This document shows positions 8,373-23,426 of a stretch of DNA of 64,000 nt, piece after piece. The translations under genes and the position numbers were made by a program. Below the pieces are notes generated by a model that searched no databases, was not told the origin of the DNA, and was given only the letters and a program-made list of their open reading frames with translations. Source of the DNA: an uncultured Actinomycetes bacterium (GTDB taxonomy: Bacteria > Actinomycetota > Acidimicrobiia > IMCC26256 > DASPTH01); assembly GCA_963809795.1 (NCBI GenBank), contig CAWELN010000011.1, forward strand, positions 38,418 to 102,417, written 5' to 3'. The first letter of the stretch is position 1; every line of letters begins with the position of its first letter.

Positions 8373-9030
8373 TCTCGCGGCTCTTGTGGATCGGTGTGAC
8401 GAGACGCGCGGACAGCTGCTCGCGCATCGGGAGCCGCTCGGTGTACGGGTCCCATGGGCTGTCCCGCAGCACCAGGGTGCCCTCGACCGTCTCCTCGAAC
8501 GCGGTGTCGCTGACGCTCGCCACCCGCACCACGTGCGGTGGGAAGTCGTAGCTCTTCTCCACACCGCCGACCGCGCGTGAGGACTTGATCCACCACTCGT
8601 TCTCGGCGTACTCGCCCGACGGGTCGTCGACGACGCCGGTGACGGTCCCGTGGAACTCGAGGAACGTGTAGCCGTGGTGGGTGCAGCGCGCCTCGACCGC
8701 GTCGTCGCGCCGGAAGTAGACGATCGAGCACGGGAACTTCGGCTGGCCGTTGATCTCCTGGCTGATGAAGATCGCCGATTCCTGGTCGATGCCCAGCCCG
8801 ATGCCGTAGTAGCCGGCCATGCCCTCGTAGTTCGCCTCCACCTTGGTGGACACGCCGTATTCCGGTTCGCCCTTCACCGGCACGTTGTAGATGTTCACGT
8901 GGACGTGCGGGTGGGCCCCGGGCTCGATGCCGGGCGGGAGCAGGTCGGCGATCTTGTCGGGGTCGGTCCGGTAGACGAGCTTGAGCAGCGGCCAGCCGGC
9001 GATCTCACCGGGCGTGATGCTTGGGGTCAT
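8272..9030 (-). CDS. acetoacetate decarboxylase (ADC) family protein
   Basis: Start ATG 9030 (MTPSITPGEIAGWPLLKLVYRTDPDKIADLLPPGIEP). N-terminal pattern and ~250 aa length are typical of the ADC family. Confidence 0.7.
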   Translation of the reverse strand: MTPSITPGEIAGWPLLKLVYRTDPDKIADLLPPGIEPGAHPHVHVNIYNVPVKGEPEYGVSTKVEANYEGMAGYYGIGLGIDQESAIFISQEINGQPKFPCSIVYFRRDDAVEARCTHHGYTFLEFHGTVTGVVDDPSGEYAENEWWIKSSRAVGGVEKSYDFPPHVVRVASVSDTAFEETVEGTLVLRDSPWDPYTERLPMREQLSARLVTPIHKSREITLAGALDPIAFWPYADTIGGSRWPGDRGGPRS

Positions 9031-9080
9031 GGTCGTTACGATCGCACCCGGCCCCGGACCGCGCAACCGAAGGAGACGAC

Positions 9081-9536
9081 GTGAGCGACATCGGGATCAA
9101 GGACGTGTCGCACGTGTCGATCGGCGTGTCCGACATGGAACGCTCCATCGCGTTCTACCACGACGTGTTCGGCTGGGAGCAGCTCTTCGACGAGCGTATG
9201 GAGGGCGCGGCGTTCGAGCGCCTCACCGGGGTCACGGGCGCCGCCGGTCAGGCGTGCGGTGGGCGCATCGGCAGCCTGCGCGTCGAGCTGATGCACTTCA
9301 ACTTCATCCCCGAGGTGCCGTCGACGCCCGGTCTCGGCCTCCGCGTGCTCTCGATGGAGGTCGACGACGCGCACGCCGCGCACGCCGAGCTGGTGCGCCG
9401 CGGCGTCCCGGTGTCGGGGCCGCCGGTCGAGGTGTTCGGTGTGCACATGTTCTTCGTGCTCGATCCCGACGGCCAGGGCATCGAGATGTGCGAATACGTC
9501 GCCGGTGGTCCGGCGTGGGGAGGGGCGTACCGATGA
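9081..9536 (+). CDS. VOC (glyoxalase/bleomycin resistance/dioxygenase) family protein
   Basis: GTG 9081 after AGGAGA. IKDVSHVSIGVSDMERSIAFYHDVFGW and a C-terminal FFVLDPDGQGIEM beta-alpha-beta module. Confidence 0.75.
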   Translation: MSDIGIKDVSHVSIGVSDMERSIAFYHDVFGWEQLFDERMEGAAFERLTGVTGAAGQACGGRIGSLRVELMHFNFIPEVPSTPGLGLRVLSMEVDDAHAAHAELVRRGVPVSGPPVEVFGVHMFFVLDPDGQGIEMCEYVAGGPAWGGAYR

Positions 9537-10267
9537 CCGAGGTGGCCGAGTCGTCCCGGTTCGTCGACAACGACGGTGTCCGCATCCACGTGCTCGACAA
9601 CGGCCGGGTGGACGCGCCCCTGCCACCGGTGCTCGTCGTCCCCGGGATGGGGGAGTACGCCGACGAGTACTCCTGGCTGCTCGACTCGCTCGGCGAGCGC
9701 CGGGTCGTGGTCGTCGACGTGCGCGGCCGCGGTCGCAGCGACGTCCCCGACACCGGCTACCGGTGGGAGGACCACATCGGCGACCTGCATGCCGTGGTCG
9801 AAGCCACCGGACTCGACCGCCCCGTCGTCGTCGCGTTCTCACGCGGGTCGTCGTACGCGCTCGGGTACGCGCTCGAGCACCCGACCGGGCTGAGGGGTCT
9901 CGTCGTCGGCGACTACTTCGCCCGGCACGTCGGCCTGCCGGCGGAGTTCGCCGACCAGCAGCTCCGATCGAAGGTGCGCGGCGTCCCGATCTCCGAACGC
10001 ATGCCGGAGCACGCGGTGCGCCAGGTCTTCGCCGAGAGCCGGGAGGTGCCGCTGTGGGGCCGGCTGACCGAGATCCGGTGCCCGGTCCTCGTGATCCGTG
10101 GCGGCCGCAAGGGCGCGATCGTCGGCGACGAGATGGCGGCGCAGTGGCAGGCGGCGCTGCCGTCGGTCGAGCTGGCGATGATCGACGGCGCCGGCCACGA
10201 CCTCTGGAGCCGCGACGTCGACGCCTACCTCGCGGTGCTCTTGCCCTTCGTGGCGAAGTGCTCCTGA
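9533..10267 (+). CDS. alpha/beta hydrolase
   Basis: ATG overlaps the previous stop (ATGA, 9533-9536). PPVLVVPGMGE, nucleophile elbow AFSRGSSY, and C-terminal DGAGHDLW. Confidence 0.8.
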   Translation: MTEVAESSRFVDNDGVRIHVLDNGRVDAPLPPVLVVPGMGEYADEYSWLLDSLGERRVVVVDVRGRGRSDVPDTGYRWEDHIGDLHAVVEATGLDRPVVVAFSRGSSYALGYALEHPTGLRGLVVGDYFARHVGLPAEFADQQLRSKVRGVPISERMPEHAVRQVFAESREVPLWGRLTEIRCPVLVIRGGRKGAIVGDEMAAQWQAALPSVELAMIDGAGHDLWSRDVDAYLAVLLPFVAKCS

Positions 10268-10289
10268 CGCTCCGGCTTCGCGTGTCGGA

Positions 10290-10994
10290 CTACGGCGGCG
10301 TGGCGCGGAACCTGACGCAGCAGTAGCCGTCCTCCGGCTCCAGCGCGGCGTGCAGCCCGGTGCCGTCGACCTCGCCCAGCAACCCGTCGAGGAAGCTCAG
10401 ATTCATCCCGCAGACGAGGTCAGTGTGCGCGAGCGCGAGATGGTGGAACGGGCAATTGTCGAGCACCACCACGCCGTCGTCACGGCGTTCGGGTTCGAAG
10501 CCGAGCGCCGCGAGCTCGTCGAGGAAGCAGGTGCGCCGGGTCCGGGTGCTCGACCGGGCGTCGAGGCGGGGAGCCACGGTGGCGCCGATGGTCGAGGCTT
10601 CGTCGCGCGCGGCCCGGTCGATCGCGGTCGCGATCGGCGTGGCGCCGGATCGGGCCCGCTCGGCCGCGTCGGCGAGGATCCGGGCCGCCAGCTCGTAGGC
10701 GCGGGGCGGCAGGTTCACGCTGATCTCGGCGGAGGTCCGTCGATAGACCTTGGCCGGCCGGCCGGCTCCGGGACCGCGGCGATCGTTGAGCCGCCGGTGC
10801 TCGGACTCGAGCAGCCCCTCGTCCTCGAGGCGGTCGAGATGGTGGGCCGTCACCCCCCGGCCCAGGTCCAGCGCCGCCGCCGCTTGTTCGCGACTGACCC
10901 ACGTCCGCTGCGCGACGACGTAGTCGTAGAGCGCCCGGCGATGGGGCTCCGCCAACGCCCCGACCGCGTCGAGGTCGTGCCCGGGTTCGGTCAT
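10290..10994 (-). CDS. winged-helix (ArsR/TrmB-like) transcriptional regulator with a Cys/His-containing C-terminal domain
   Basis: Start ATG 10994. HRRALYDYVV...VSREQAAAALDLGRGVTAHHLDRLEDEGLL...GRPAKVYRRT is the wHTH part. C-terminal DNCPFHHLALAHTDLVCGMN is a possible sensing site. Confidence 0.75.
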   Translation of the reverse strand: MTEPGHDLDAVGALAEPHRRALYDYVVAQRTWVSREQAAAALDLGRGVTAHHLDRLEDEGLLESEHRRLNDRRGPGAGRPAKVYRRTSAEISVNLPPRAYELAARILADAAERARSGATPIATAIDRAARDEASTIGATVAPRLDARSSTRTRRTCFLDELAALGFEPERRDDGVVVLDNCPFHHLALAHTDLVCGMNLSFLDGLLGEVDGTGLHAALEPEDGYCCVRFRATPP

Positions 10995-11000
10995 TCCGAC

Positions 11001-11072
11001 ATTGTATCGACAATCAAAGCTTGACTTAGAGACGCCGGCCGACGAGAGTAACGACAAGCTCCATTGTCGATA
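11001..11072. promoter_or_regulatory. candidate operator pair: ATTGTATCGACAAT (11001-11014) and ATTGTCGATA (11063-11072), with a TTGACT -35-like box at 11021-11026
   Basis: The 10-mer TATCGACAAT occurs again as its exact reverse complement 49 nt downstream. Both sites lie in the AT-richer divergent region between the regulator (start 10994) and the DUF2231-folE operon (start 11121). Confidence 0.45.
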
Positions 11073-11120
11073 GAGACGGGTCGCCCTCCGGGCGGTGCGA
11101 TCAGCGATCAGGAGGCGCAG

Positions 11121-11687
11121 ATGCGCAGGTTCTCGTTGCGTCCGACGTTCGCGCTCAGCGGGCGGCAGTTCAAGGGCCTGCGCGGCTGGTCGGGCAAGCC
11201 GGCTCACCCGCCGCTGACCGACTTCCCGATCGCCGCCTACCTCTTCGCGGCGGTCTTCGATCTCATCGCGACCTTCGGCCGCCACGAGTCGTGGGCACGC
11301 GACTTCTTCCACGCCGGAACCTTCGTGTTCGTCGGTGGAGCGGCCGTCTCGCTGCTCACTGCGCTGACCGGGTTCTGGGACTGGCTCCGTTCGACCGAGA
11401 AGGGGACGCAGGCACGCCGAACCGCGAACGCCCACGCCTGGGCGATGATCCTCGTCACCGTCCTCGCGTTGACGGACATCGCGCTCCGGATCGATGCGTA
11501 CGACGCCCGGAACCATCCGACCCCGGCGATCCTGATCCTCTCGTTGGTGGTGGCGCTGCTCGTCTCGTTCGGCGCCGCGCTCGGCGGCACGCTGGTGTTC
11601 GACTACGGCTTCAACGTCGAGACGGCCGGGGACAGCCCGGTGTGGCACCCATCCGAGACCGACATCCTGCCGGGAGACGACGCGTGA
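11121..11687 (+). CDS. DUF2231-like integral membrane protein
   Basis: ATG 11121 after AGGAGG. Four hydrophobic helices (FPIAAYLFAAVFDLIA, FVFVGGAAVSLLTALTGFWDW, AWAMILVTVLALTDI, ILILSLVVALLVSFGAALGGTLVF). Pattern resembles DUF2231. Confidence 0.65.
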   Translation: MRRFSLRPTFALSGRQFKGLRGWSGKPAHPPLTDFPIAAYLFAAVFDLIATFGRHESWARDFFHAGTFVFVGGAAVSLLTALTGFWDWLRSTEKGTQARRTANAHAWAMILVTVLALTDIALRIDAYDARNHPTPAILILSLVVALLVSFGAALGGTLVFDYGFNVETAGDSPVWHPSETDILPGDDA

Positions 11688-12286
11688 CCATCGCGCCCCT
11701 GCACGTCGTGCCGGACGGCGGCGCGGTCGATCTCGACGCCGCGACGACCGCGGTGCACGACCTCCTCGTCGCCCTGGGCCAGGAGGCGGACTCCGACGAG
11801 CTCGCGGAGACCCCGCGTCGAGTGGCGACGGCGCTGGCCGAGCTGCTGACGCCCCGGGCATTCACGATGACGACGTTCAGCAACGACGGAAGCTACGACG
11901 AGATGGTCGTGGTCCGGGACATCGCGTTCCATTCTCTCTGCGCGCACCACATGCTGCCGTTCCTGGGGGTCGCGCACGTCGCGTACCTGCCCGGGACTCG
12001 CGTGGTCGGACTCTCCAAGCTGGCGCGCCTCGTCGAGCACTGCTCGCGGGGCCTTCAGACCCAGGAGCGACTCACGACCGAGGTCGCGGACGCGCTCGAC
12101 GAACACCTCGCGCCGCGAGGCGTCGGCGTCGCGATCGAAGCGACGCACCTCTGCATGAGCATCCGTGGGGTCGAAGCTCCCGGCGCGACGACCGTGACCA
12201 CCGCGGTGCGGGGCGCGGTCCGCGACGATCCGTCGACGCGAGCCGAGTTCACCCGCCTGACGACCGCACGCCCTCGCGGCGCGTGA
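11684..12286 (+). CDS. folE: GTP cyclohydrolase I (FolE type IA)
   Basis: GTG overlaps the previous stop (GTGA, 11684-11687). ETPRRVA, FHSLCAHHMLPF, GLSKLARLV, QERLT and ATHLCMSIRGV are FolE signature segments, including the Zn Cys/His residues. Confidence 0.88.
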   Translation: MTIAPLHVVPDGGAVDLDAATTAVHDLLVALGQEADSDELAETPRRVATALAELLTPRAFTMTTFSNDGSYDEMVVVRDIAFHSLCAHHMLPFLGVAHVAYLPGTRVVGLSKLARLVEHCSRGLQTQERLTTEVADALDEHLAPRGVGVAIEATHLCMSIRGVEAPGATTVTTAVRGAVRDDPSTRAEFTRLTTARPRGA

Positions 12287-12298
12287 CCCGGCCGAGCG

Positions 12299-13489
12299 TC
12301 AACGGGGCGTGAACACCAACGGCAGCGGGTCGACGGTGCGGATGGCGACGTTGTTGTACCCCGGTGTGCGATCAGGATCGAGCGCGTAGTCGGGGATGCG
12401 CTCGTGGAGCGCGCCGAGGATCACGGACAGCTCCATGCGCGCCAGGTGCGAGCCCAGGCAGCGGTGGAAGCCGCTGGCGAACGCGATGTGCCGCTTGGCC
12501 TCGCGGTCGAAGTCGACCGCGAGGGGCTGGTCGAAGCCGGCCGGGTCGAGGTTCGCCGCGGCCCAGCACACGCTGATCTCGTCGCCCGCGTGCACGTGCT
12601 CGCCGCCGATCACGAAGTCGGCGGTGGCGTAGCGCCCACCGGCGACGACCGGCGTCTCGAAGCGCATCAGCTCCTCGATGGCGGCCGGGAGGACGGCGGG
12701 ATCGTCGAGGATCCGCCGGCGCTGGTCGGGGTGCCGGGCCAGCCAGTCGACGATGCACGACAACGACGCGGCCACGGTGTCGAGCCCGGCGAGCACGAGC
12801 AGGAAGGTGATGTCGATCACGTCTTCGCGGGTGAGCGTCGCGCCGTCGACCTCGGCGGTGATGAACCCGCCGATGAGGTCGTCGCCGGGGTCGCCGCTCG
12901 CCTCGCGCCGGTCGAGCTCGGCGTACAGGTACTCGATCATCTTCGTGTTGGCGGCGACCCGGTGGTCGTCGTCGGTCGGCCGGATGATCCCGTTCTTGAA
13001 CCAGATGAGGAAGTCGAGGTCGCTGAGGGGCAGCCCGAGCAGCGTGAGGAACACCATCGACGGCAGCGGCTCGCAGAACGAGTTGTAGAGCTCGACCCGG
13101 CCGTCGCCGATGAACCCGTCGATGAGCTCGTCGGCGAGCGCATGCACCCGCGTCGCGAGCTGCGCCACGACCTTGGGCGCGAACAACGGGTCCAGCAGCT
13201 TGCGGTACTTCGTGTGCGCGTCACCGTCGAGCATGAGGGGGATGAGCGGCCGGCCGGCGCCCATGAACGCACCCGCGAGCTCGATCAGCTCCGGGTTCAT
13301 CGAGTGCACGTCGCGGCGCTTGGTGACCTCGAGCACATCGTCGAGCCGGAAGATCGTGACGTGACCCTCCTCGTCGCGACGCACGCGCGGGCCGCCGGTC
13401 ACCAGGTCGAGCAGCGCGGGCTGGATGTCGGGGACACCGTTCTGGAACACCTCGGGGAAGAAGGTCCCCGGGCCGTACTCGTCAGCCAT
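12299..13489 (-). CDS. cytochrome P450
   Basis: 396 aa. I-helix LVLAGLDTVA, EELMRFETP (ExxR), and heme loop FASGFHRCLGSHLA. Confidence 0.92.
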   Translation of the reverse strand: MADEYGPGTFFPEVFQNGVPDIQPALLDLVTGGPRVRRDEEGHVTIFRLDDVLEVTKRRDVHSMNPELIELAGAFMGAGRPLIPLMLDGDAHTKYRKLLDPLFAPKVVAQLATRVHALADELIDGFIGDGRVELYNSFCEPLPSMVFLTLLGLPLSDLDFLIWFKNGIIRPTDDDHRVAANTKMIEYLYAELDRREASGDPGDDLIGGFITAEVDGATLTREDVIDITFLLVLAGLDTVAASLSCIVDWLARHPDQRRRILDDPAVLPAAIEELMRFETPVVAGGRYATADFVIGGEHVHAGDEISVCWAAANLDPAGFDQPLAVDFDREAKRHIAFASGFHRCLGSHLARMELSVILGALHERIPDYALDPDRTPGYNNVAIRTVDPLPLVFTPR

Positions 13490-13641
13490 GTTTCGATCCT
13501 CAGGAGGTCAGCGGCGCGGGCAACGTCCCACGCATCGCAGGCACGAGCGCAGCGTAACCGCCCGGTCGGACGTCTCGACCCCGGTCGGAAGTTGCGCCGC
13601 GGCGGAGTCGCGGGACACTCCACCTGTGTAGGGTCGGCCGC

Positions 13642-14178
13642 GTGGCCCTGGAGTTCCTCACCGCGCACGAGTACGACGTCGTGCGGCAGCTCGCCGACCG
13701 GCTGCTGCCGCCGCAGGGTGAGTTCCCCGGCGCGGGCGCGACCGGCGCCGCCGACTACGTCGATCGCCTCCTCGGCGCGTTCAACGTCGACCCGCCGCGC
13801 ATCTGGGCCGGTGGTCCCTACTCGGGTCGTTACGGCGGGGAGCCCGGATTCGAGCGGTTCCTGCCGCTGTCGCGGATCGAGGAGCTCGCGTGGCGCACGC
13901 GCATCGAGGGTTCGTGTGGCATGCCGGAGCGCGAGTGGAACGGTCCGGTGCGCGGCTGGCAGGAGATCTACCGCGACGGCATCGCCGCCCTCGGTGACGA
14001 TCTCGACCTCGACCCGCAACCGGAGCTGAAGCAGCTGCTGTTCGAGCACGCGTGCGAGGCGACGTACGGGCCGCCCGAGTACGGCGGGAACCGCGGGCTC
14101 GCCGGGTGGCGGGCGATCGGGTACGAGGGCGACGTGCAACCGCGCGGCTGGAGCGACGCGGAGGTCACCGGTGCCTGA
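13642..14178 (+). CDS. gluconate 2-dehydrogenase subunit 3 family small subunit (partner of the GMC flavoprotein)
   Basis: GTG 13642. LTAHEYDVVRQLADRLLP... and C-terminal YGPPEYGGNRGLAGW are typical of this family. No Tat signal visible. Overlaps the next gene by 8 nt. Confidence 0.7.
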   Translation: MALEFLTAHEYDVVRQLADRLLPPQGEFPGAGATGAADYVDRLLGAFNVDPPRIWAGGPYSGRYGGEPGFERFLPLSRIEELAWRTRIEGSCGMPEREWNGPVRGWQEIYRDGIAALGDDLDLDPQPELKQLLFEHACEATYGPPEYGGNRGLAGWRAIGYEGDVQPRGWSDAEVTGA

Positions 14179-15835
14179 GTTCGACGTCGTCGTGGTCGGT
14201 TCCGGGCCGGGAGGTGCCACCGCGGCCGACGTGCTCACCGCCGCCGGGAAGTCGGTCTGCGTCCTCGAGAAGGGCCGCAACCACCTCCTCGCGCTGGTGC
14301 CGCCCTTCGACGGGCTCGGCCACCTGTCGAACGACGAGGTCAAATTCGCCCGGCGCCACTTCCTCGGTCCCGACCCGCTGCTCGAGCCGCGCACCTACCG
14401 GCGCTCGACGGCCGACGGCGAGCGGCTCGCCACCCGCGATCTCAACAACATGCCCTCGACGGTCGGCGGCGCCGGTTTCCACGCCGACGGGAAGCTGCCG
14501 CGCTACCGCGAGGTCGACTTCCGCCTCGCGTCGGAGCTGGGGCCGGTCGAGGGTGCCGAGGTCGCCGACTGGCCGCTCGACTACGACGAGCTCGAGCCGT
14601 TCTACGCGGAGGCCGAACGCGCGATCGGCGTGGCCGGCGACCACACCGGCAACCCGTTCGCCGCGTGGCGCAGCGGTCCGTATCCGATGCCACCGGGCGC
14701 CGACATGTACCTCACGACCCTGACCGCGCCCGCGGCCGCGACGCTCGGATACCACCCGTACCGCGCGCCGACCGGCGCCAACAGCGTGCCCTACGACGGT
14801 CGGCCCGCGTGCAACAACTGCGGGTTCTGCGCCTTCTACGGTTGCCCGATCGACGCCAAGGGCGACCCGGTCGCCATGCTGCGCCGCTCGCTCGGGCGCG
14901 GGCGCTGTGAGCTGCGCCCCGAGAGCATCGCGCTCGAGATCCTGCTCGACCGCGGCGGCGCGCGCAGCACCGGGGTGCGCTACCTCGACGGCGACGGGGT
15001 GGAGCACACGGTGTCGGCGGACGCGGTGGTGGTCGCGTGCGGCGCGTTCGAAACCCCGCGCCTCCTGCTGCGCAGCGGCATCGGGAACTCGTCGGACCTG
15101 GTCGGTCGCTTCCTCATGTTCCACCTGCAGACGATCGTGCTCGGGTTCTTCCCGTTCCGGCTCCACGCCCACAAGGGCCGCGACGTCACGCACCTCATGG
15201 ACGACCCGATCGTCGGCGACGCCGAGAGCGCCGCCGCCGCACGCGCCGCGGGGGTGCCCTACCTGCGCGGCGGCATCGTCGAGCACGGTGGCAACGGCCA
15301 CCCGATCTTGGAGGCGCTCTTCCTCCCACCCGGCCCCGACCACACCGCGCTCATGCTCGACTCGACCACCCGCGACAAGATGGTCGCCTTCACGATGCAG
15401 GGCGAGGATCTGCCCCAGTTCACGAACCGCGTTGATCTCGACGGCGGCGTGCGCGACGTGTGGGGACTCCCGGCGGGCCGGGTGACGTACGCACCCCACG
15501 CGCACGAGGTCGCGTGCGCGCACCACTGGGGGCCGCGGCTCGAGGCCGTGTTGCGAGCGGCGGGCGCGCAGGGCACGTCGTGGGTCACGTCGCCCGGCAC
15601 GCCCGGCACCATCGCGCCCGACATCGAGCCGATGTCGAAGCACTGGATGGGAACCGCGCGCATGGGCACCGATCCCGGGACGTCGGTGTGCGACCCGTGG
15701 CAACGACTGTGGGACGTCGACAACGTCGTCGTCACCGACTCCTCGGTGTTCCCGACGTCGACGGGCTACGGCCCCACCCTCACCCTGGTCGCGCTCGCGC
15801 TACGCGCGGCGGGCGCGCTGGCGGCCTCGTTGTGA
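14171..15835 (+). CDS. GMC family FAD-dependent oxidoreductase
   Basis: FDVVVVGSGPGGATAA FAD fold. 554 aa with C-terminal GTARMG...VVDSSVFPTS, typical of GMC oxidoreductases. Confidence 0.9.
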   Translation: MPEFDVVVVGSGPGGATAADVLTAAGKSVCVLEKGRNHLLALVPPFDGLGHLSNDEVKFARRHFLGPDPLLEPRTYRRSTADGERLATRDLNNMPSTVGGAGFHADGKLPRYREVDFRLASELGPVEGAEVADWPLDYDELEPFYAEAERAIGVAGDHTGNPFAAWRSGPYPMPPGADMYLTTLTAPAAATLGYHPYRAPTGANSVPYDGRPACNNCGFCAFYGCPIDAKGDPVAMLRRSLGRGRCELRPESIALEILLDRGGARSTGVRYLDGDGVEHTVSADAVVVACGAFETPRLLLRSGIGNSSDLVGRFLMFHLQTIVLGFFPFRLHAHKGRDVTHLMDDPIVGDAESAAAARAAGVPYLRGGIVEHGGNGHPILEALFLPPGPDHTALMLDSTTRDKMVAFTMQGEDLPQFTNRVDLDGGVRDVWGLPAGRVTYAPHAHEVACAHHWGPRLEAVLRAAGAQGTSWVTSPGTPGTIAPDIEPMSKHWMGTARMGTDPGTSVCDPWQRLWDVDNVVVTDSSVFPTSTGYGPTLTLVALALRAAGALAASL

Positions 15836-16392
15836 GCGAGCCGTTCGCCGACGTGGACACGCTGTTCGACGCGTTGCGGGCGTCGCGCGACGCCGACGAC
15901 GAAGGTGGTCTCTCGATCCTCGAGCACTGCCTGCAGTGCGCCGAGCTCTTGCGCATCTCGCGCGCCGGCGACGACGCGCTGCAGGTCGCGGGGCTCGTGC
16001 ACGACCTCGGTTGGCTCGAGCGATCGGGCGATGGGTGGACACTGCGGCTCGACGCCGCACACGACGTCGACGGTCGCGCGCTCGTGGAGCCCCTGCTCGG
16101 CGACCGCGTGGCGAGCCTGGTCGGCGGGCACGTCGCCGCCAAGCGGTACCTCCTCACCACGGACCCTGACTACGCCACGCTCCTGTCGCACCGGAGCGAG
16201 GTGACGCTGGGCTTCCAGGGCGGCCTCATGGACGCGGCCGAGGTGGCGGCGTTCGAGCGCCGCTCCGACCGCGCCGACCTGGTCGCGCTCCGCCGGGCCG
16301 ATGACGCGGCGAAGGTCCGGGGCAAGGACGTCGACCCGCTCGAGTCGTGGCTCCCCGTCGTCACCAGCATGTGTCGAACGAGGAGCACATGA
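15832..16392 (+). CDS. HD-domain protein with PhnZ/TmpB/MIOX-like six-ligand pattern (putative mixed-valent diiron oxygenase)
   Basis: GTG shares GTGA with the GMC stop (15832-15835). Candidate ligands, counted from the GTG: H32 (LEHCLQC), H57-D58 (GLVHDLG), H77 (AAHDVDG), H100 (GGHVAAKRYL), D157/D158 (RRADDAAK). QGGLM segment is present. About 186 aa, as for PhnZ-type proteins. Confidence 0.65.
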   Translation: MSEPFADVDTLFDALRASRDADDEGGLSILEHCLQCAELLRISRAGDDALQVAGLVHDLGWLERSGDGWTLRLDAAHDVDGRALVEPLLGDRVASLVGGHVAAKRYLLTTDPDYATLLSHRSEVTLGFQGGLMDAAEVAAFERRSDRADLVALRRADDAAKVRGKDVDPLESWLPVVTSMCRTRST

Positions 16393-16427
16393 CGCACGCA
16401 TTCGCGGCGCGCTCGCCCGGGTAGGGG

Positions 16428-17507
16428 TCAGAGCAGCGAACGACCGGTCGCGCCCGGGAGCTCGAGATCGAGGAGGGCGGCGACGGTCGGGGCCCAGTCG
16501 GCGGCCGTGATCCGACGGTCGCCGAGCGCGTCGACCAGCCGTCCCACGGCGGGGTGGCCGCCGGTGACCACCGCCACCTGGCTGCGGGTGCGGGGGCCGC
16601 CGTGGGTGCCGAGCTCGATGCCCATCTCCTCGAACCCGAAGGCGCGCCCCGCGACCGACCACGCCAGGCAGCACTCGAGACTCGGGTCGGCGACCGGGAA
16701 CGGTGCGGTGCCCTCGATACCGTCGACCTCGGAGAGCCACGCACGCGCGTCGTGCGCACCGGCGCCGCAGACGACGGTGGCGTTGCCTTCGGGGAGCGCG
16801 AACAGATCGACGCCCCGCCGGGCGAACACCGGACGCAGGTCGATGGGCGGCCGGTCGTCGAGCCCCTCCTGGTCGTGGTCGGACACGACGATCCACACGG
16901 TGTCGGCCCAGTCGAGGTGGTCGCGCGCCGCGACCAGCAGCGCGTCGGTCTCGCGGTACACGGCCAGCGCCGCCTCGCTGTCGGGACCGTGCACGTGGGC
17001 CGCGGTGTCCGGCGCGTTCAGCTGGCTGATCACCAGATCGGGACCGGCGTCGAGCGCGGCGACCAGCTCTACGATCGTGTCGCGGTCGTCGATGTAGTCG
17101 TGCGCGTCGCGTCGAGCGCTCGCCGGCGGAACACCGTCGGGCGGCCAGTGGGTGTCGGCGGTGACGGCCCCGGTGACACCCACCAGGCACTGGTCGCCGA
17201 ACACGGCCGCGGAGGACCGCCCCGCGGCACCGCACGCGTCGAAGAGCGTGGGCACGGCCGGTCCGAGCTCCCATGCCGGCACCACCGATCCCGTGACCGG
17301 CACCCAGTTCGTGACGATGCCGTGATCGCGTGGCGGCGCGCCGGTCACGAAGGTGGCGTGGTTGGGATACGTGGCCGAGGTCATGACCGAGCGGGCCCGG
17401 ACGGGCGCACCGCCCACCGCCCGCGCCAGCTCCGCCAGGACCGGGGTGTGCTCCTCGCCGACGTGGCGAAACGGGAGCGCGTCGAGGACGGTCATGACGA
17501 CCTTCAT
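16428..17507 (-). CDS. alkaline-phosphatase-superfamily type I phosphodiesterase/nucleotide pyrophosphatase (NPP)-like enzyme
   Basis: NPP metal/nucleophile motifs are all present: VLDALP, SATYPNHATFVTGAPPRDHGIVTN (Thr nucleophile), APDTAAHVHGPDS, VVSDHDQ, GTHGG. Start ATG overlaps the PhyH stop (ATGA, 17504-17507). Confidence 0.8.
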   Translation of the reverse strand: MKVVMTVLDALPFRHVGEEHTPVLAELARAVGGAPVRARSVMTSATYPNHATFVTGAPPRDHGIVTNWVPVTGSVVPAWELGPAVPTLFDACGAAGRSSAAVFGDQCLVGVTGAVTADTHWPPDGVPPASARRDAHDYIDDRDTIVELVAALDAGPDLVISQLNAPDTAAHVHGPDSEAALAVYRETDALLVAARDHLDWADTVWIVVSDHDQEGLDDRPPIDLRPVFARRGVDLFALPEGNATVVCGAGAHDARAWLSEVDGIEGTAPFPVADPSLECCLAWSVAGRAFGFEEMGIELGTHGGPRTRSQVAVVTGGHPAVGRLVDALGDRRITAADWAPTVAALLDLELPGATGRSLL

Positions 17508-18281
17508 GCCGGCCGACCCTCGAAGTCGCCGATCAGCGACACCAGCGCCCGATCACCGGGATCGGCTCGGGCGAACGCGGCCTGCTTGTGCGCGTAGTAC
17601 TCGGCCCTGCGGTCCCCTTCGGACGCGGCGTTGTAGGTGGGGTAGAGCGCCCGGCGCGGCCGCGACGAGCGATTGGCCGCGCTGCGGTGCGGGGTGCGGC
17701 TGTGGAACCACAGCGTGCTCCCGGCCGGCACCGCCACCGGTAGCCAGTCGAGCGACGCGGCGACGGTGGGCTCGATGCACCCGCGCGCGTCGGTGGGCAA
17801 CACCGCGTCGAAGTGGTCGGACACCACCTCGAGGCCGCCGTTCGTCTCGTCGGCGTCGTCGATCGCGATCAGCGCCGACACGTGCGCGGAGATCATCGGG
17901 TACGCAGGGGCGTCTTGATGCGCCGAGTACCCGGCACCACCGGGCAGCTTGTAGTTGATCTTCTCCTTGTAGAGCACCGCCGGTTCACCGAGCAGCCGGC
18001 CCGCGACGTCGAGGAGGGTTCCGGTGCACAACAGCGTGCGCAACTCGGAGTGCGCGGGGAGGAAGTTCTCGCTGCGGCAGAGCTGCGCCCCGTGGTCGGT
18101 CGCTTCCCGGTGCTGGAGCACGCCGGTCGCGTCGGGCAGCGCGGCGACCTCGTCGGCCCAGCGCGCCAAGGCGCGCGCGTGCGCGTGGTGAGAGCGCGTC
18201 GACCACCACCCACCCGTGATCGGTGAAGTGCGCGGTCGCGGCGTCGAGCTCGGTGCGTGTCACCGAGTTGACAGTAGCCAC
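17504..18281 (-). pseudogene. phytanoyl-CoA dioxygenase (PhyH) family Fe(II)/2OG dioxygenase, interrupted by a 1-nt frameshift at ~18191-18194 (or a sequencing error)
   Basis: The C-terminal 221 codons (17504..18169) carry AHQDAP (HxD) and HSRTPHRS. The expected N-terminus VATVNSVTRTELDAATAHFTDHGWVVVDAL is in another frame starting at GTG 18281 (or 18263). The main frame has a TGA upstream and no start codon before a TTG at 18169. Confidence 0.7.
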
Positions 18282-18300
18282 GGCAACTGTCGCGCTGCGT

Positions 18301-18342
18301 GGGAACCCGGTACGCTCCGCAGCGGCGGGAACCAGCGGTACG
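18301..18342. promoter_or_regulatory. direct repeat GGGAACC(N0/2)CGGTACG x2 in the PhyH / transporter divergent region
   Basis: GGGAACCCGGTACG at 18301-18314 and GGGAACCagCGGTACG at 18327-18342, in the 78-nt gap between divergent starts ~18281 and ~18360. Confidence 0.3.
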
Positions 18343-18359
18343 GTCTGGGGGGAGCGGCG

Positions 18360-20573
18360 TTGACGGAGACGCAGCACGGCGACGCGAGCGCGGCCTCACT
18401 CGCCGCCACCGTGCTCGACGAGGAGGATGCGCGGGAACAGGCGCAGAAGCGCGCGCGGGAGCAGGTCATCTTCCCCGACGACCTGCTGCCCGGCGTCCAC
18501 TCCGAGCCCGTCTCCTTCAAACAGGCGTTCAAGGTCGGCGGCAAGCTCATGTTCGTCGTGCTGCTGCTGCTCTACTCGTTCGACGAGCTCGAGGGCGCGG
18601 CCATCAACGTGCTCGCCCCCGAGATCCGGCGGACGTTCCACATCAGCTCGGGCACGATCGTCTTCATCGCCAGCGCGTCGTCGGCCTTCTTCGTGCTCGG
18701 TGCCGTGCCGATGGGTTGGCTCGCCGACCGGGTGAAGCGGGTACCGATCGTCGGGTGGGCCAGCCTCGCCTTCGGCTTCTTCGTGTTCCTCTCCGGTCTC
18801 GCGGTGAGCGCGTTCATGCTGTTCTGGACGCGCTTCGCCACCGGCATCGCCAAGGCGAACAGCATCCCCGTCCACCAGTCCCTCATCGCCGACAACTACC
18901 CGATCGGGATCCGGGCCCGGATGTCGGCCGCCATCAACATGGGCGGCCACGGCATCGGCCTGGTCAGCCCGGTGCTGTGCGCGGCCATCGCCACGTGGGC
19001 GGGTGGGGTCGAGGGCTGGCGGTGGGCGTGGTTCCTGCTCGGCATCCCGGTGGTGTGCGTCGCCGTCCTCGCGTTCTTCATGAAGGAACCGCCCCGCGGG
19101 CAGTTCGAGAAGCAGGACGTGCTCGGTGAGGTGATCGAGGACGAGCAGCCGGCGCCCATCTCGATGGAGGCCGCCTTCGCCCGCATCAAGCGCATCCGGA
19201 CGATCCGCACCGTCCTCGTCGGTTTCTGTGCCCTGGGGTTCGGCCTGTTCAGCCAGCCCGCGCTCGAATCGCTGTACCTCGACGACAACCTGCACGTGAG
19301 GGGCGTGCTCGAACGCGGGATCATCCTCAGCCTCTCGGGCATCCTCGCCCTGCCGATGCTGCCGTTGGTCGGCCGCTACTTCGACAAGAGGTACCGGGAG
19401 GACCCGGCACGCGCGCTCGCGCTGGTCGGACTGCTGATCCTGCCGTCGGCACTGCTCACCCCGCTGCAATTCAGCGTGCAGAGCTCCACCTGGTTCTGGA
19501 TCTTGAAGATCCCGCAGGCGGTGTTGACCGCGTCCGCGTTCGCGATGGTGGGCCCGGTGCTCCAGGCGGTGGTGCCGTACCGGCTGCGCGGCATGGGCAC
19601 CGCCATGTCGACGCTGTACATCTTCTTCATCGGTGGCTTCATGGGTGGCCTCGTGTCGGGCTTCCTCACCGACGCCATCGGGATCCGGGGCACCGTGATC
19701 TTCCTCGGGGTGCCCAGCGCCATCATCGGCGGGCTGCTGCTGATGAACGGTGCCCGGTACATCCGCAACGACCTCTCGCTCGTGGTCGAGGAGCTGCTCG
19801 AGGAGAAGGACGAGCACGAGAAGCGCTTCGTGCAGAAGACGGCGGTGCCGCTCCTCCAGCTCGCCAACATCGACTTCTCCTACGGACCGGTCCAGGTGCT
19901 CTTCGGGGTCGACTTCGAGGTGCAGAAGGGGGAGACCGTCGCGCTGCTCGGCACCAACGGTGCGGGGAAGTCGACCGCGCTGCGCGTGATCAGCGGCCTC
20001 GCCGTACCCGAGCGCGGTGTGGTCCGCCTCAACGGTCAGAACATCACGTACGTCGCGCCCGAGGGTCGGGCCAAGTACCTGAGCATCATGCAGCTGCCCG
20101 GCGGGCACGGTGTGTTCGGCAACCTCACCGTCGACCAGAACCTGGCGGTGAGCGCTCGGCTCAATGCCGAGAGCCGGAGCCAGGTGCACCAGCGGATGGC
20201 GGCCGTCTACGACCTGTTCCCCGAGCTCGCCGGGAACGGGAAGCAGGTCGCCAGCAGCATGTCGGGCGGGCAGCAGCAGATGCTGGCGCTGGGCCGGGTC
20301 CTGATCCACGAGCCCGAGCTCCTGATGATCGACGAGCTCTCGCTCGGTCTGGCCCCGCTGGTGGTGCAGCGCCTGCTGGAGGTGGTCGAGGAGCTCAAGC
20401 TGCGCGGCCAGACGATGATCATCGTCGAGCAGTCGCTGAACGTCGCGATGGCCCTCGCCGACCGCGCCATCTTCCTGGAGAAGGGCCAGGTGCGGTTCGA
20501 GGGATCGACCGAGGGGCTCCTCGAACGCGGCGACCTCGCCCGGGCGGTGTTCTTCGGGACCGAGGGCGGCTGA
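18360..20573 (+). CDS. fusion protein: 12-TM MFS transporter domain + LivF-like ABC ATPase domain
   Basis: Start uncertain (TTG 18360 after GGGGGGAG; track ORF begins at 18216). MFS motif A GWLADRVKRVPIVG, about 12 hydrophobic helices, acidic linker, then NBD motifs GTNGAGKST, MSGGQQQMLALGR, LLMIDELSLGLAP. Confidence 0.85.
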   Translation: MTETQHGDASAASLAATVLDEEDAREQAQKRAREQVIFPDDLLPGVHSEPVSFKQAFKVGGKLMFVVLLLLYSFDELEGAAINVLAPEIRRTFHISSGTIVFIASASSAFFVLGAVPMGWLADRVKRVPIVGWASLAFGFFVFLSGLAVSAFMLFWTRFATGIAKANSIPVHQSLIADNYPIGIRARMSAAINMGGHGIGLVSPVLCAAIATWAGGVEGWRWAWFLLGIPVVCVAVLAFFMKEPPRGQFEKQDVLGEVIEDEQPAPISMEAAFARIKRIRTIRTVLVGFCALGFGLFSQPALESLYLDDNLHVRGVLERGIILSLSGILALPMLPLVGRYFDKRYREDPARALALVGLLILPSALLTPLQFSVQSSTWFWILKIPQAVLTASAFAMVGPVLQAVVPYRLRGMGTAMSTLYIFFIGGFMGGLVSGFLTDAIGIRGTVIFLGVPSAIIGGLLLMNGARYIRNDLSLVVEELLEEKDEHEKRFVQKTAVPLLQLANIDFSYGPVQVLFGVDFEVQKGETVALLGTNGAGKSTALRVISGLAVPERGVVRLNGQNITYVAPEGRAKYLSIMQLPGGHGVFGNLTVDQNLAVSARLNAESRSQVHQRMAAVYDLFPELAGNGKQVASSMSGGQQQMLALGRVLIHEPELLMIDELSLGLAPLVVQRLLEVVEELKLRGQTMIIVEQSLNVAMALADRAIFLEKGQVRFEGSTEGLLERGDLARAVFFGTEGG

Positions 20574-23426
20574 TGACCCTCGCCACCGTGGTGACGTGGA
20601 ACCTGGTGTTCAAGGGCGTCGTCGGCGGCCTGATCACCGCGCTGGTGGCCATGGGCATCGTCCTCGTGTACCGCTCGTCCCGGGTCATCAACTTCGCGGT
20701 CGGCAGCATCGGCCTCCCGGCCACCGCGCTGTTCGCGGTGATGGTCGGGGTCCACGGCTGGCCGTACTGGCCGTCCCTGTTCGCCGCGTTGGCCGTCGGC
20801 ACGCTCACCGGCGTGCTGGTCGAGCTGGCGGTCATCCGCCGCCTGTTCAAGTCGCCGCGCGTCATCGTGCTGGTCGCCACCATCGGTGTCGCGCAACTGT
20901 GCGAGGCGATCACGCTCTCGCTGCCCGCCTACCGCACCGGCTCCTTGCAGACCCAATTCCCGGTGCCGTTCAGCGGCACGTGGTACCCGGGGCTCGGCAT
21001 CGAGGTCTCCGCCAGCCAGCTCCTCGTACTGATCGTGGTGCCGGTCATCACCGTCGGGCTCTGGTGGCTCCTCGGGCACACCGCGTTCGGCGACGCGGTG
21101 CGCGCGGCCGCGTCGAACTCCGACCTCGCCCGCATGACGGGCATCAACCCCAAGATGGTCTCCACCGGTGTGTGGGCGATCGCCGGCTTCCTGGGCACGG
21201 TCGCGATCCTGCTCACCGCCACCGACCAGACCTCGGCCGATCTCGTGCACATCGGGCCCGACACGCTCCTGCGCGGCATGGCGGCGGCGCTGATCGGGGG
21301 GATGGTGTCGTTCCCCCGCGCCGCGGTCGGTGCCGTGCTGATCGGCATCCTCGACCGGGTGCTCTTCTTCAACTACACCTCGGAGACCGGCCTGGTGCAG
21401 TTCGTGCTGTTCCTCGCGGTGCTGGTGCTGGTGGCACGGGTCAGCCGCAACGAGACCGGCGCGGAAGGCGAGAGCTTCCAGTTCGCGCCGCGGATCGCCG
21501 CGGTGCCGGAGCGGCTGCGCAACATCTGGTGGGTGAAACGGCTCCCCCAACTCGTCGCCGCGCTCACGCTGCTCGTGGCGCTGGTCCTCCCGTTCCTCTC
21601 CGACAAGTCGGAGCGTCACCAGACCTGGGCCACCATCATCGCCTTCGCGCTGTGTGCGATCTCGGTGGTGGTGCTCACCGGCTGGGGTGGTCAGCTCTCA
21701 CTCGGCCAGATGGCGTTCGCCGGTCTGGGCGCGCTCACCGCGGGTGCCCTGATCCGGGGCCTGCAGTTCAACATCGGGTGGCGCGGCACCCGGTTCCTCG
21801 ACGGCGGGCTCCCGAGCATCTCCTTCCCGTGGGCGCTCCTGCTCGGCGCGGCCTTCGCCAGTCTCGTCGCGGTGATCGTCGGCATCGGGGCCTTGCGCGT
21901 CCGCGGGCTGTTGCTCGCGATCAGCACGCTGGCGTTCGCGATCGCGGCGCAGGCCTACATCTTCAGCCGTCCCATCTTCACCGCCGGCAGCACCACGATC
22001 GAGATCCCACGCACGGACCTCGGTCCGCTCGAGCTCACCCACCGCAACCGCGCGTACTACTACTTCGTCTTGTTCGTGCTCGTCCTCGTCTTGGTGCTCG
22101 TCTCGCACCTGAAGCGCACCGGCATCGGTCGCATGATCGTCGGAGTGCGCGAGAACGAGCTCGCCACCTCCGCCATGACGGTGTCGCCGGCGCGGGCGAA
22201 GCTGCTCGCGTTCGCGATGGGCGGGTTCATCGCCGGCCTGGGCGGGGTGCTCCTGGGCGCGGTGAACCTCACGTTCGCGCCGGCCGAGCAGCACTTCTTC
22301 CTGGTCGACGACTCGTTGCGGCTGGTTGCCATCGTCGTGATCGGCGGCCTCGGCAGCCTCGCGGGCGCGGTCGCGGGCGCGGTGTGGGTGATCGGGCTGC
22401 CCGCGTTCTGGCCCGAGCAACACGCTGGTGCCGCTGTTCACGTCGAGCATCGGCCTGCTCATCATCCTGCTCTACATTCCCGGCGGGTTCGTGCAGATCG
22501 GGTACTACGTGCGCGACTCGCTGCTCCGGTGGGTCGACAAACGCCTGGGACCGGTCGACACCACCAAGACGGTCACCGCGCCGCCGGCGTCGCTCCACCG
22601 CGACCTCGCGCTGGAACCGGCGTCGCTCAACGGCGACGGGTCGGTGCTCGCCACCGAGCACCTGACGGTCCAGTTCGGCGGTCTCACCGCGGTCGACGGC
22701 GTCGAGTTCCGGGCCATGCCCGGCGAGGTGATCGGCCTCATCGGCAACAACGGCGCCGGGAAGTCGACGCTGCTGAACGCGATCGGGGGCTACGTGCCGG
22801 CCAAGGGCACCGTGCAGCTCCTGGGCCACGACGTGAGCAGCAAGAAGGCGTACCAGCGTGCCCGCCGCGGGCTCGGCCGAACGTTCCAGTCGGCGCGCCT
22901 CTATCCCGAGCTCACCGTGCGCGACACCGTGCAGCTCGCGCTCGAGGCCCGCCAGTCGACGTCGTTCTGGGGCTCCCTGTTGTGGGTGCCGTCGATCCGG
23001 CCCGAGCGCAAGAAGTACGCGGAGGCGAGCGAGCTCATCGACTTCCTCGGACTCGGTCGCTATGCCGACCGGTACGTCGCCGAGCTCTCGACCGGGACGC
23101 GCCGCATCGTGGAGCTGGCGACGGTCCTCGCGGTCGCGCCGCGCGTCATCTGCCTCGACGAGCCCACGGCGGGGGTGGCCCAGCGTGAGGCCGAGGCGTT
23201 CGGGCCGCTGATCCTGCGGGTGCAGCAGGAGCTCGACGCCACCCTCGTCGTCGTCGAGCACGACCTGCCGCTGATCCTCTCGGTCAGCAGTCGGATCTAC
23301 TGCCTGGAAGCAGGGCGGGTGATCGCGGAGGGCCTCCCGGCCGCGATCCGCGAGGACCCGCGCGTCATCTCGTCGTACCTGGGCACCGACGAGCGCGCCA
23401 TCCAACGGAGCAACGCGCCCGGGTAG
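20573..23426 (+). pseudogene. fused LivH-LivM permease + LivG-like ATPase of a branched-chain-amino-acid-type ABC importer, split by a 1-nt frameshift at ~22416-22421 (or a sequencing error)
   Basis: ATG 20573 overlaps the previous stop (TGATG). Frame A (20573 to ~22418) encodes the LivH then LivM domains and then decays into Arg/Pro/His-rich nonsense. Frame B (track ORF 22428..23426) starts inside the last LivM helix (PLFTSSIGLLIILLYIPGGF) and continues into an NBD (GNNGAGKST, LSTGTRRIVELA, VICLDEPTAGV). Deleting one base in GAGcAACACG gives a continuous ...GLPAFWPENTLVPLFTSS... Confidence 0.8.

Follow-up and report, generated by a model that had tools for sequence, protein, structure and literature searches.

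A 2023 review counts four versions of oxidative C-P bond cleavage, in each of which a hydroxylase and an oxygenase, paired or fused, take free phosphonates as substrates: the 2-aminoethylphosphonate (AEP) pathway, the methylphosphonate pathway of Gimesia maris, the trimethyl-AEP pathway via TmpA/TmpB, and the fungal fusion PhoF (PMC10574752). None of the four has an NPP or GMC partner (PMC10574752). Here, we analysed a stretch of 64,000 nucleotides (the window) from an uncultured Acidimicrobiia bacterium (contig CAWELN010000011.1, positions 38,418 to 102,417), in which an operon encoding a PhyH-family dioxygenase and an NPP-type phosphodiesterase lies tail to tail with a gene for an HD-domain protein. 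We consider it somewhat more probable than not (about 0.55) that these three genes are a variant of the PhnY*/PhnZ oxidative phosphonate pathway and that a GMC flavoprotein and its small subunit, encoded next to the HD gene, are independent of it. A first, sequence-only reading of the window had proposed a single C-P cleavage module that included the GMC pair. The part comprising HD and PhyH-NPP held on family, fold and gene order, while the GMC-coupled part did not, the junction between GMC and HD being found in one clade. That reading had also remarked that the described PhnY*/PhnZ and TmpA/TmpB clusters have no NPP partner; the literature searched agrees, and contained no description of an NPP or GMC partner of PhnY*/PhnZ. 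The five genes are as follows:

13642-14178, plus strand: Gluconate_2-dh3-like small subunit, 178 aa (Pfam PF13618, 1e-8)
14171-15835, plus strand: GMC-family FAD oxidoreductase, 554 aa (Pfam GMC_oxred_N/C)
15832-16392, plus strand: HD-domain protein, 186 aa, candidate PhnZ-family mixed-valent diiron oxygenase (NCBIfam and PDB matches, model)
16428-17507, minus strand: NPP-type metallo-phosphodiesterase of the alkaline phosphatase superfamily, 359 aa (Pfam PF01663, 2e-27)
17504-18263, minus strand: PhyH-family Fe(II)/2-oxoglutarate dioxygenase, PhnY*-like, frameshifted, 252 aa in orthologues (Pfam PhyH, 1.8e-20)

The sequence-level statements of the first reading were all confirmed. The small gene overlaps the GMC start by 8 nt, the GMC stop and the GTG start of HD share GTGA at 15832-15835, and the NPP start and PhyH stop share ATGA at 17504-17507. 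The HD open reading frame (ORF) encodes 186 aa, with H32, H57-D58, H77, H100 and D157/D158 at the places given for them, and all the NPP and PhyH motifs quoted were found. The families assigned by eye (Gluconate_2-dh3, GMC_oxred_N/C, Phosphodiest and PhyH) were each matched in the Pfam search. The G+C content of the window is approximately 0.71 and its closest matches were metagenome-assembled genomes (MAGs) labelled Acidimicrobiia or Actinomycetota. The gene arrangement was seen again in many genomes and is more than chance.

By predicted fold and metal site, the HD protein is a PhnZ-like oxygenase of an uncharacterised subfamily. Its only sequence relatives in the PDB were PhnZ (1e-19) and TmpB (9e-17). 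In NCBIfam it matched TIGR03276 best (129.8 bits, cut-off 214.6), followed by the PhnZ1 model NF052439 (98.2 bits, cut-off 300) and the TmpB model NF049941 (88.9 bits, cut-off 300). The AlphaFold model (pLDDT 91.8) was compared with solved structures using Foldseek. The template modelling score (TM) was 0.85 to PhnZ (4mlm, 32-34% identity), 0.80 to TmpB (6npa, 27-28% identity), approximately 0.5 to MIOX, and 0.4 or less to the hydrolytic HD proteins RelH, SpoT, dNTPase and YpgQ. The residues H32, H57, D58, H77, H100 and D157 align to PhnZ H34, H58, D59, H80, H104 and D161, and all six are invariant among 27 orthologues. Invariant in the subfamily, too, are the positions that match PhnZ K108, S126, T129, Q133 and R158, residues that bind the phosphonate in the PhnZ structures. 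In a family alignment of 121 sequences (114 that represent 50%-identity clusters, plus 7 more, among them PhnZ and the window protein), the ligands and these five positions were nearly universal. The PhnY*-like PhyH gene, approximately 1.1 kb away, provides a genomic pairing with a 2-oxoglutarate-dependent hydroxylase. From the alignment and the model, the protein is predicted to use an Fe(II)/Fe(III) cofactor and to cleave C-P bonds with O2. The first reading had already proposed a six-ligand oxygenase of the PhnZ/TmpB type, and the profile, PDB and Foldseek evidence agrees with it: the profiles place the protein with the phosphonate-degradation HD oxygenases, below the curated cut-offs, and the overlay places it nearer to PhnZ than to MIOX. 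A hydrolytic nucleotidase or dNTPase was ruled out by the NCBIfam placement and by TM values of 0.4 or less, which also mean that no nucleotidase-type clustering was found.

The best and sole strong curated match of the PhyH protein was the methylphosphonate hydroxylase PhnY* of G. maris (NF052437, 223 bits against a cut-off of 500, 4e-66), as expected from the first reading, which had taken it for a PhnY*-like hydroxylase partner. The intact orthologue in locus L003 likewise scored 223 bits. The Pfam model PF05721 matched at 1.8e-20, and in the alignment with a solved PhyH protein the iron triad (HxD...H) falls on HQD and on the His of TPH.

The HD subfamily alignment was searched against a single genome of each species and gave 23 loci. 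At the 19 species-level loci whose HD identity is at least 64%, contigs that were long enough carried NPP in every case (18 of 18), and likewise PhyH (17 of 17). The HD gene was always tail to tail with NPP, and the 4-nt ATGA overlap of PhyH and NPP was retained wherever the genes were called (L001, L002, L003, L108 and L110). The three genes also occur together in L108 and L110 and on metagenome contigs; NPP homologues within the trio go down to 56% identity (L108, L110), and one at 53% lies outside it. The flanks vary from locus to locus (GMC, tRNA-His, Usp, a gene resembling non-ribosomal peptide synthetases (NRPS-like), or PhoU_div-PHO4). As the trio is kept while its flanks change, HD, NPP and PhyH are a real, conserved unit, and the PhyH-NPP operon facing HD, proposed from the one window, proved to be strongly conserved.

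Some loci have additional genes between HD and NPP. An ammonium-transporter-family gene is wedged there in L010 (11793-13790), and a zinc alcohol dehydrogenase of family PF00107 follows HD in L008 (10613-11638). PbfG, a recently described HEP dehydrogenase, belongs to the same Pfam family (PMC13576164). A sister HD clade (51-57% identity; L020, L021 and L024, approximately 8500-12400) was found in MAGs of freshwater Actinomycetota. It keeps Trp61 and has no NPP. The order in L021 is aldehyde dehydrogenase, HD and then a PhnY*-like PhyH (40% identity), and in L020 a CMD-family gene immediately follows HD. This clade may represent another uncharacterised PhnZ-type pathway.

Several observations weigh against a PhnY*/PhnZ-type pathway. 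The HD protein falls under all three curated equivalog cut-offs, as do the nearest 50%-identity clusters, and its chemistry could differ. PhnZ and TmpB have a transient YxxE loop (Y24/E27 and Y30/E33 respectively) whose Tyr caps Fe2 and whose Glu binds the substrate amine (PMC8177086). The loop is absent from HD, which has D22-D23-E24-G25-G26 in its place, one residue shorter and lacking Tyr; this ADDEGG segment is invariant across the subfamily. Trp61 (HDLGW) is likewise invariant where PhnZ has His62 (HDLGH) and TmpB has His (HDIGH). In the family alignment this position is variable (His in 69 sequences, Trp in 16, others in 36). Lacking both YxxE and His62, HD would differ from PhnZ and TmpB in substrate and gating region, and the two replacements imply, as far as alignment can tell, a substrate or gating mode unlike that of the characterised enzymes.

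The genomic context adds to these points. All examples of the trio come from MAGs of one lineage, Acidimicrobiia/Actinomycetota, so that part of the gene-order conservation is shared ancestry. The sole direct phosphorus-metabolism context adjoining the trio is in L002, where a PHO4-type phosphate transporter and PhoU_div stand directly upstream of PhyH-NPP on the same strand (12607-15175), with PPK2 beyond; no other phosphorus link was seen. This is the non-HD side, occupied in other loci without GMC by the NRPS-like gene (L014) or HlyD/ABC genes (L022). The window has neither a recognisable PHO box nor a known phosphonate transporter. Streptomyces-type PHO repeats were not found by eye, although the PhoP motif of Acidimicrobiia may differ. 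The last two points, the fold of the NPP protein, as near to the C-P hydrolase PhnA as to diesterases, and a single-nucleotide lesion in the PhyH gene, each belong to a rival explanation.

The NPP protein matched Phosphodiest (PF01663) with 97.1 bits (cut-off 23; 2e-27). In alignments with the Xanthomonas enzyme (Xac NPP), its metal ligands and Thr nucleophile correspond to D9, T46, D167, H171, D210 and H211, while H302 was assigned as a ligand from its invariance and the GTHGG motif only. No signal peptide was found in the protein. The trio could be phosphonate-related with NPP not taking the first step, in which case NPP would hydrolyse a phosphate ester left after C-P cleavage or act as a PhnA-like parallel hydrolase. 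The structural comparison fits this alternative: the model (pLDDT 93) had TM values of 0.70-0.75 to Xac NPP, ENPP7, ENPP5 and PhnA alike (14-20% identity, Foldseek), with 0.71-0.75 to phosphonoacetate hydrolase (1ei6), equal to Xac NPP and ENPP7. There are also weak PhnA sequence matches, and no observation made here sets the order of the steps. However, the profile search preferred Xac NPP (6e-16) over PhnA (1e-9), and the NCBIfam PhnA model covered 50 residues only, with 21 bits against a cut-off of 408. In addition, HD retains all the pocket positions shared across the PhnZ family, which would fit a free phosphonate better than an ester. We regard a later or parallel role of NPP as unlikely. 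Action of NPP first, on an ester and giving the free phosphonate, is favoured because the PhyH-NPP coupling is tight and because HD keeps the pocket positions shared with PhnZ.

The frameshift in PhyH, already reported in the first reading, was borne out. One extra C at approximately 18175 breaks the frame relative to the 92-96% identical orthologues of L003 and L005; PhyH is intact in these and other loci. The true start is the GTG at 18263, and the longest in-frame ORF in the window is missing the ~31 N-terminal residues of the 252-aa orthologue. If the insertion is real, the module is decaying in this genome and the pathway is inactive here, whatever its role elsewhere. Against this, the extra C lies within a CGCGCG tract, and the remainder of PhyH is 88% identical to L003 and carries no other lesions. 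A second frameshift, 4 kb away at approximately 22400 (22395-22430), splits a LivH/LivM-ABC fusion transporter gene that is a single 949-aa ORF in L003, and split genes are frequent in related long-read MAG contigs. Two frameshifts within 5 kb, together with the many split genes, suggest assembly indel errors, which are at least as likely as true decay for the PhyH lesion; a decaying module appears quite unlikely.

We then turn to the GMC pair, for which membership of the module was not upheld. In six loci (L002, L014, L018, L022, L108 and L110) the trio occurs without GMC, and its HD side, where GMC would be, carries a tRNA-His(GTG) gene:

L002, 9828-9904: tRNA-His(GTG) gene
L014, 9625-9701: tRNA-His(GTG) gene
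L018, 9828-9904: tRNA-His(GTG) gene
L108, 7782-7858: tRNA-His(GTG) gene
L110, 7780-7856: tRNA-His(GTG) gene
L022, 7337-7413: tRNA-His(GTG) gene

In five of these loci the tRNA gene and the HD start are approximately 100 nt apart; in L022 the distance is 2.6 kb. Its position next to the trio looks like ancestral synteny. With the exception of L014, a tRNA-Lys(CTT) gene lies farther out. The window has no tRNA genes. The tRNA-His gene is unlikely to mark an integrated island, as its 5' end, not its 3' end, faces HD.

The reverse search, with the GMC protein against metagenome contigs, gave a corresponding result. The small subunit preceded GMC in 65 of the 65 loci with enough sequence, and only 8 of 64 GMC orthologue loci, every one of them from the closest clade, carried HD downstream (8/10 at GMC identity of at least 80%, 0/54 below). 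Two GMC orthologues at 82-83% identity had no HD downstream. In more distant loci (L047, L058, L059 and L083), the pair stands behind hydantoinase/oxoprolinase B and A genes. The GMC and Gluconate_2-dh3 pair is very widespread in soil metagenomes (L028-L107, 59-96% identity) and was never separated; it is an independent, uncharacterised conserved unit. No export signals were found in GMC or the small subunit, nor a twin-arginine signal in the latter.

A five-gene module, in which GMC and its small subunit would share the pathway and oxidise, for instance, the hydroxylated phosphonate or a released alcohol, is suggested by the GTGA overlap in the window, by the gapless abutment of GMC and HD in L003, L004, L005 and L028, and by the 15 of 19 species-level genomes that have GMC before HD. 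The alcohol dehydrogenases PhpC and PbfG are known ancillary enzymes in phosphonate clusters (PMC13576164). These points are outweighed by the six trios with tRNA-His in place of GMC, by the absence of HD from the two orthologues at 82-83% and all 54 below 80%, and by the persistence of the GMC pair by itself. Furthermore, within the GMC-containing clade the flanking genes, including GMC, are 84-96% identical and the trio 64-78%, which points to whole-block synteny among close relatives. The GMC-HD junction is therefore a lineage-specific rearrangement boundary: the PhyH-NPP adjacency is conserved and the HD-GMC adjacency is not. GMC and HD are probably co-transcribed in this clade, and GMC is probably an adjacent gene outside the module. 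As a pathway member it was rejected on gene order; GMC-coupled chemistry is not supported, and we judge the five-gene module very unlikely. The lesson is that translational coupling, as between GMC and HD, can stem from recent rearrangement and need not mean common function.

Finally, action of PhyH and HD on a non-phosphonate, by hydroxylation and then oxidative C-C cleavage as in SmaO/SmaX or MIOX and with NPP serving an unrelated phosphoester, is highly improbable: SmaO/SmaX is a precedent for C-C bond cleavage by a 2-oxoglutarate hydroxylase together with an HD oxygenase (PMC12186529), and HD lacks YxxE and His62 and scores under the equivalog cut-offs, but SmaX has a single iron, no second-site ligands and other Pfam families (PMC12186529), whereas HD has six ligands, the K/S/T/Q/R positions common to PhnZ proteins, a fold with TM 0.85 to PhnZ/TmpB against 0.5 to MIOX, a phosphoryl-transfer enzyme as constant partner, and a PhyH partner whose nearest curated relative is a phosphonate hydroxylase.

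For the PhnY*/PhnZ-type pathway, we infer the substrates, the order of the steps, a phosphorus-scavenging role and the regulation as follows. In the first step, the cytoplasmic NPP-type binuclear metallo-esterase, with Thr46 as nucleophile, would hydrolyse an esterified or anhydride-linked phosphonate (candidates: nucleotide-phosphonates and phosphonate monoesters of sugars, glycerol or lipid head groups) to free phosphonate. The PhnY*-like Fe(II)/2-oxoglutarate dioxygenase would then, judging from its family, hydroxylate C1. In the third step, the PhnZ-like mixed-valent diiron oxygenase would split the 1-hydroxyalkylphosphonate with O2, giving a carboxylic acid and inorganic phosphate, as its fold, ligands and conserved pocket residues suggest. 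The GMC and small-subunit genes would have been placed upstream of HD by a rearrangement in one Acidimicrobiia clade, and the module would not need them.

A large part of natural phosphonate occurs as esters in lipids and glycans, and little is known of how bacteria link these esterified pools to C-P cleavage. If NPP is a conserved partner, it would provide the missing first step from esterified phosphonate to C-P cleavage, and would widen the oxidative pathway to abundant uncultured soil Actinomycetota. We propose tentatively, and with more doubt than confidence, that the trio is an undescribed three-enzyme route by which soil Acidimicrobiia mine esterified phosphonates, the NPP esterase feeding the PhnY*/PhnZ pair and ADDEGG/Trp61 representing a new specificity with tyrosine-independent gating. 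Candidate substrates of such a route are methylphosphonate or aminoethylphosphonate esters of glycans or lipids, and nucleotide-phosphonates. For enzymologists, the ADDEGG/Trp61 subfamily offers a natural PhnZ variant without the Tyr gate and His62.

Regulation of the PhyH-NPP operon may involve a perfect inverted repeat directly upstream of the PhyH GTG, which is unique in the window:

18270-18291, no strand assigned: inverted repeat GACAGT-N10-ACTGTC, candidate operator/promoter with conserved half-sites

The repeat shares bases with TACTGT, a -10-like hexamer 7 nt ahead of the GTG. Roughly a dozen related loci keep the half-sites but differ in the spacer. TACTGT and the repeat are candidates for the -10 element of a leaderless PhyH-NPP transcript and an overlapping operator, which may be shared with the divergent transporter promoter. 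Also upstream of PhyH, the conserved motif GCGGAGCGTACCGGGTTC is more readily interpreted as the -10 region (TACGCT, other strand) of that divergent transporter gene. No sigma-70-like promoter or terminator was found in 13300-18500, and an Rfam scan of 13000-19000 gave no match.

The divergent genes encode an unusual transporter, with a fusion of MFS_1 domain and LivF-like ABC ATPase (approximately 18360-20573), followed by the LivH/LivM permease-ATPase fusion (approximately 20573-23426) and Peripla_BP_6 binding-protein genes downstream. This Liv-type transporter is divergent from PhyH in window-type loci and in L108 and L110, which lack GMC, and it is absent from L002, L014 and L022. It is an older neighbour of the trio than GMC, and could be the importer of the module. 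PhnW, PhnX, PhnA, C-P lyase and PhnD were not found among the approximately 40 window ORFs scanned.

Compared with the known systems, SmaO/SmaX, which converts Asp to aminomalonate (PMC12186529), has a similar cascade of 2-oxoglutarate hydroxylase and HD oxygenase, but SmaX contains one iron, has none of the second-site ligands and acts on a C-C bond within a peptide, whereas the window HD protein has the full diiron set. The window NPP protein shares with Xanthomonas NPP (PDB 2GSN) and PhnA the alkaline phosphatase superfamily fold, the binuclear metal ligands and the Thr nucleophile; it differs in its low identity (14-20%), in having no signal peptide and in being fixed in a PhnY*/PhnZ-like context.

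TmpA/TmpB (trimethyl-AEP; PDB 6NPA) follows a similar two-step logic, and the TmpB fold is close to that of HD (TM 0.80), but TmpB has YxxE and a His at the PhnZ His62 position (PMC8177086), and HD has neither. The hydroxylases differ as well. TmpA is gamma-butyrobetaine-hydroxylase-like and not of the PhyH family, to which the sequence-only reading had assigned it, and no TmpA chain was among the solved structures matched by the window PhyH protein.

GmPhnY*/GmPhnZ1, which converts methylphosphonate via hydroxymethylphosphonate to formate and phosphate, gave the best PhyH match and the second-best HD match. The scores of both window proteins are far under the equivalog cut-offs (500 and 300 respectively), and an NPP partner of the G. 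maris pair was not found in the literature searched. The AEP pair PhnY*/PhnZ (PDB 4MLM/4N71) likewise combines a PhyH-type 2-oxoglutarate hydroxylase with a six-ligand HD diiron oxygenase, and HD conserves both the H..HD..H..H..D motif and the positions of PhnZ K108, S126, T129, Q133 and R158. By contrast, the Y24/E27 loop of PhnZ is replaced by the one-residue-shorter ADDEGG and His62 by Trp61, and the genes described here are convergent rather than in one operon, with an obligatory third gene of the NPP family. The NPP partner and the ADDEGG/Trp61 pocket are what is new in this locus, and both have so far been found only in uncultured Acidimicrobiia and Actinomycetota.

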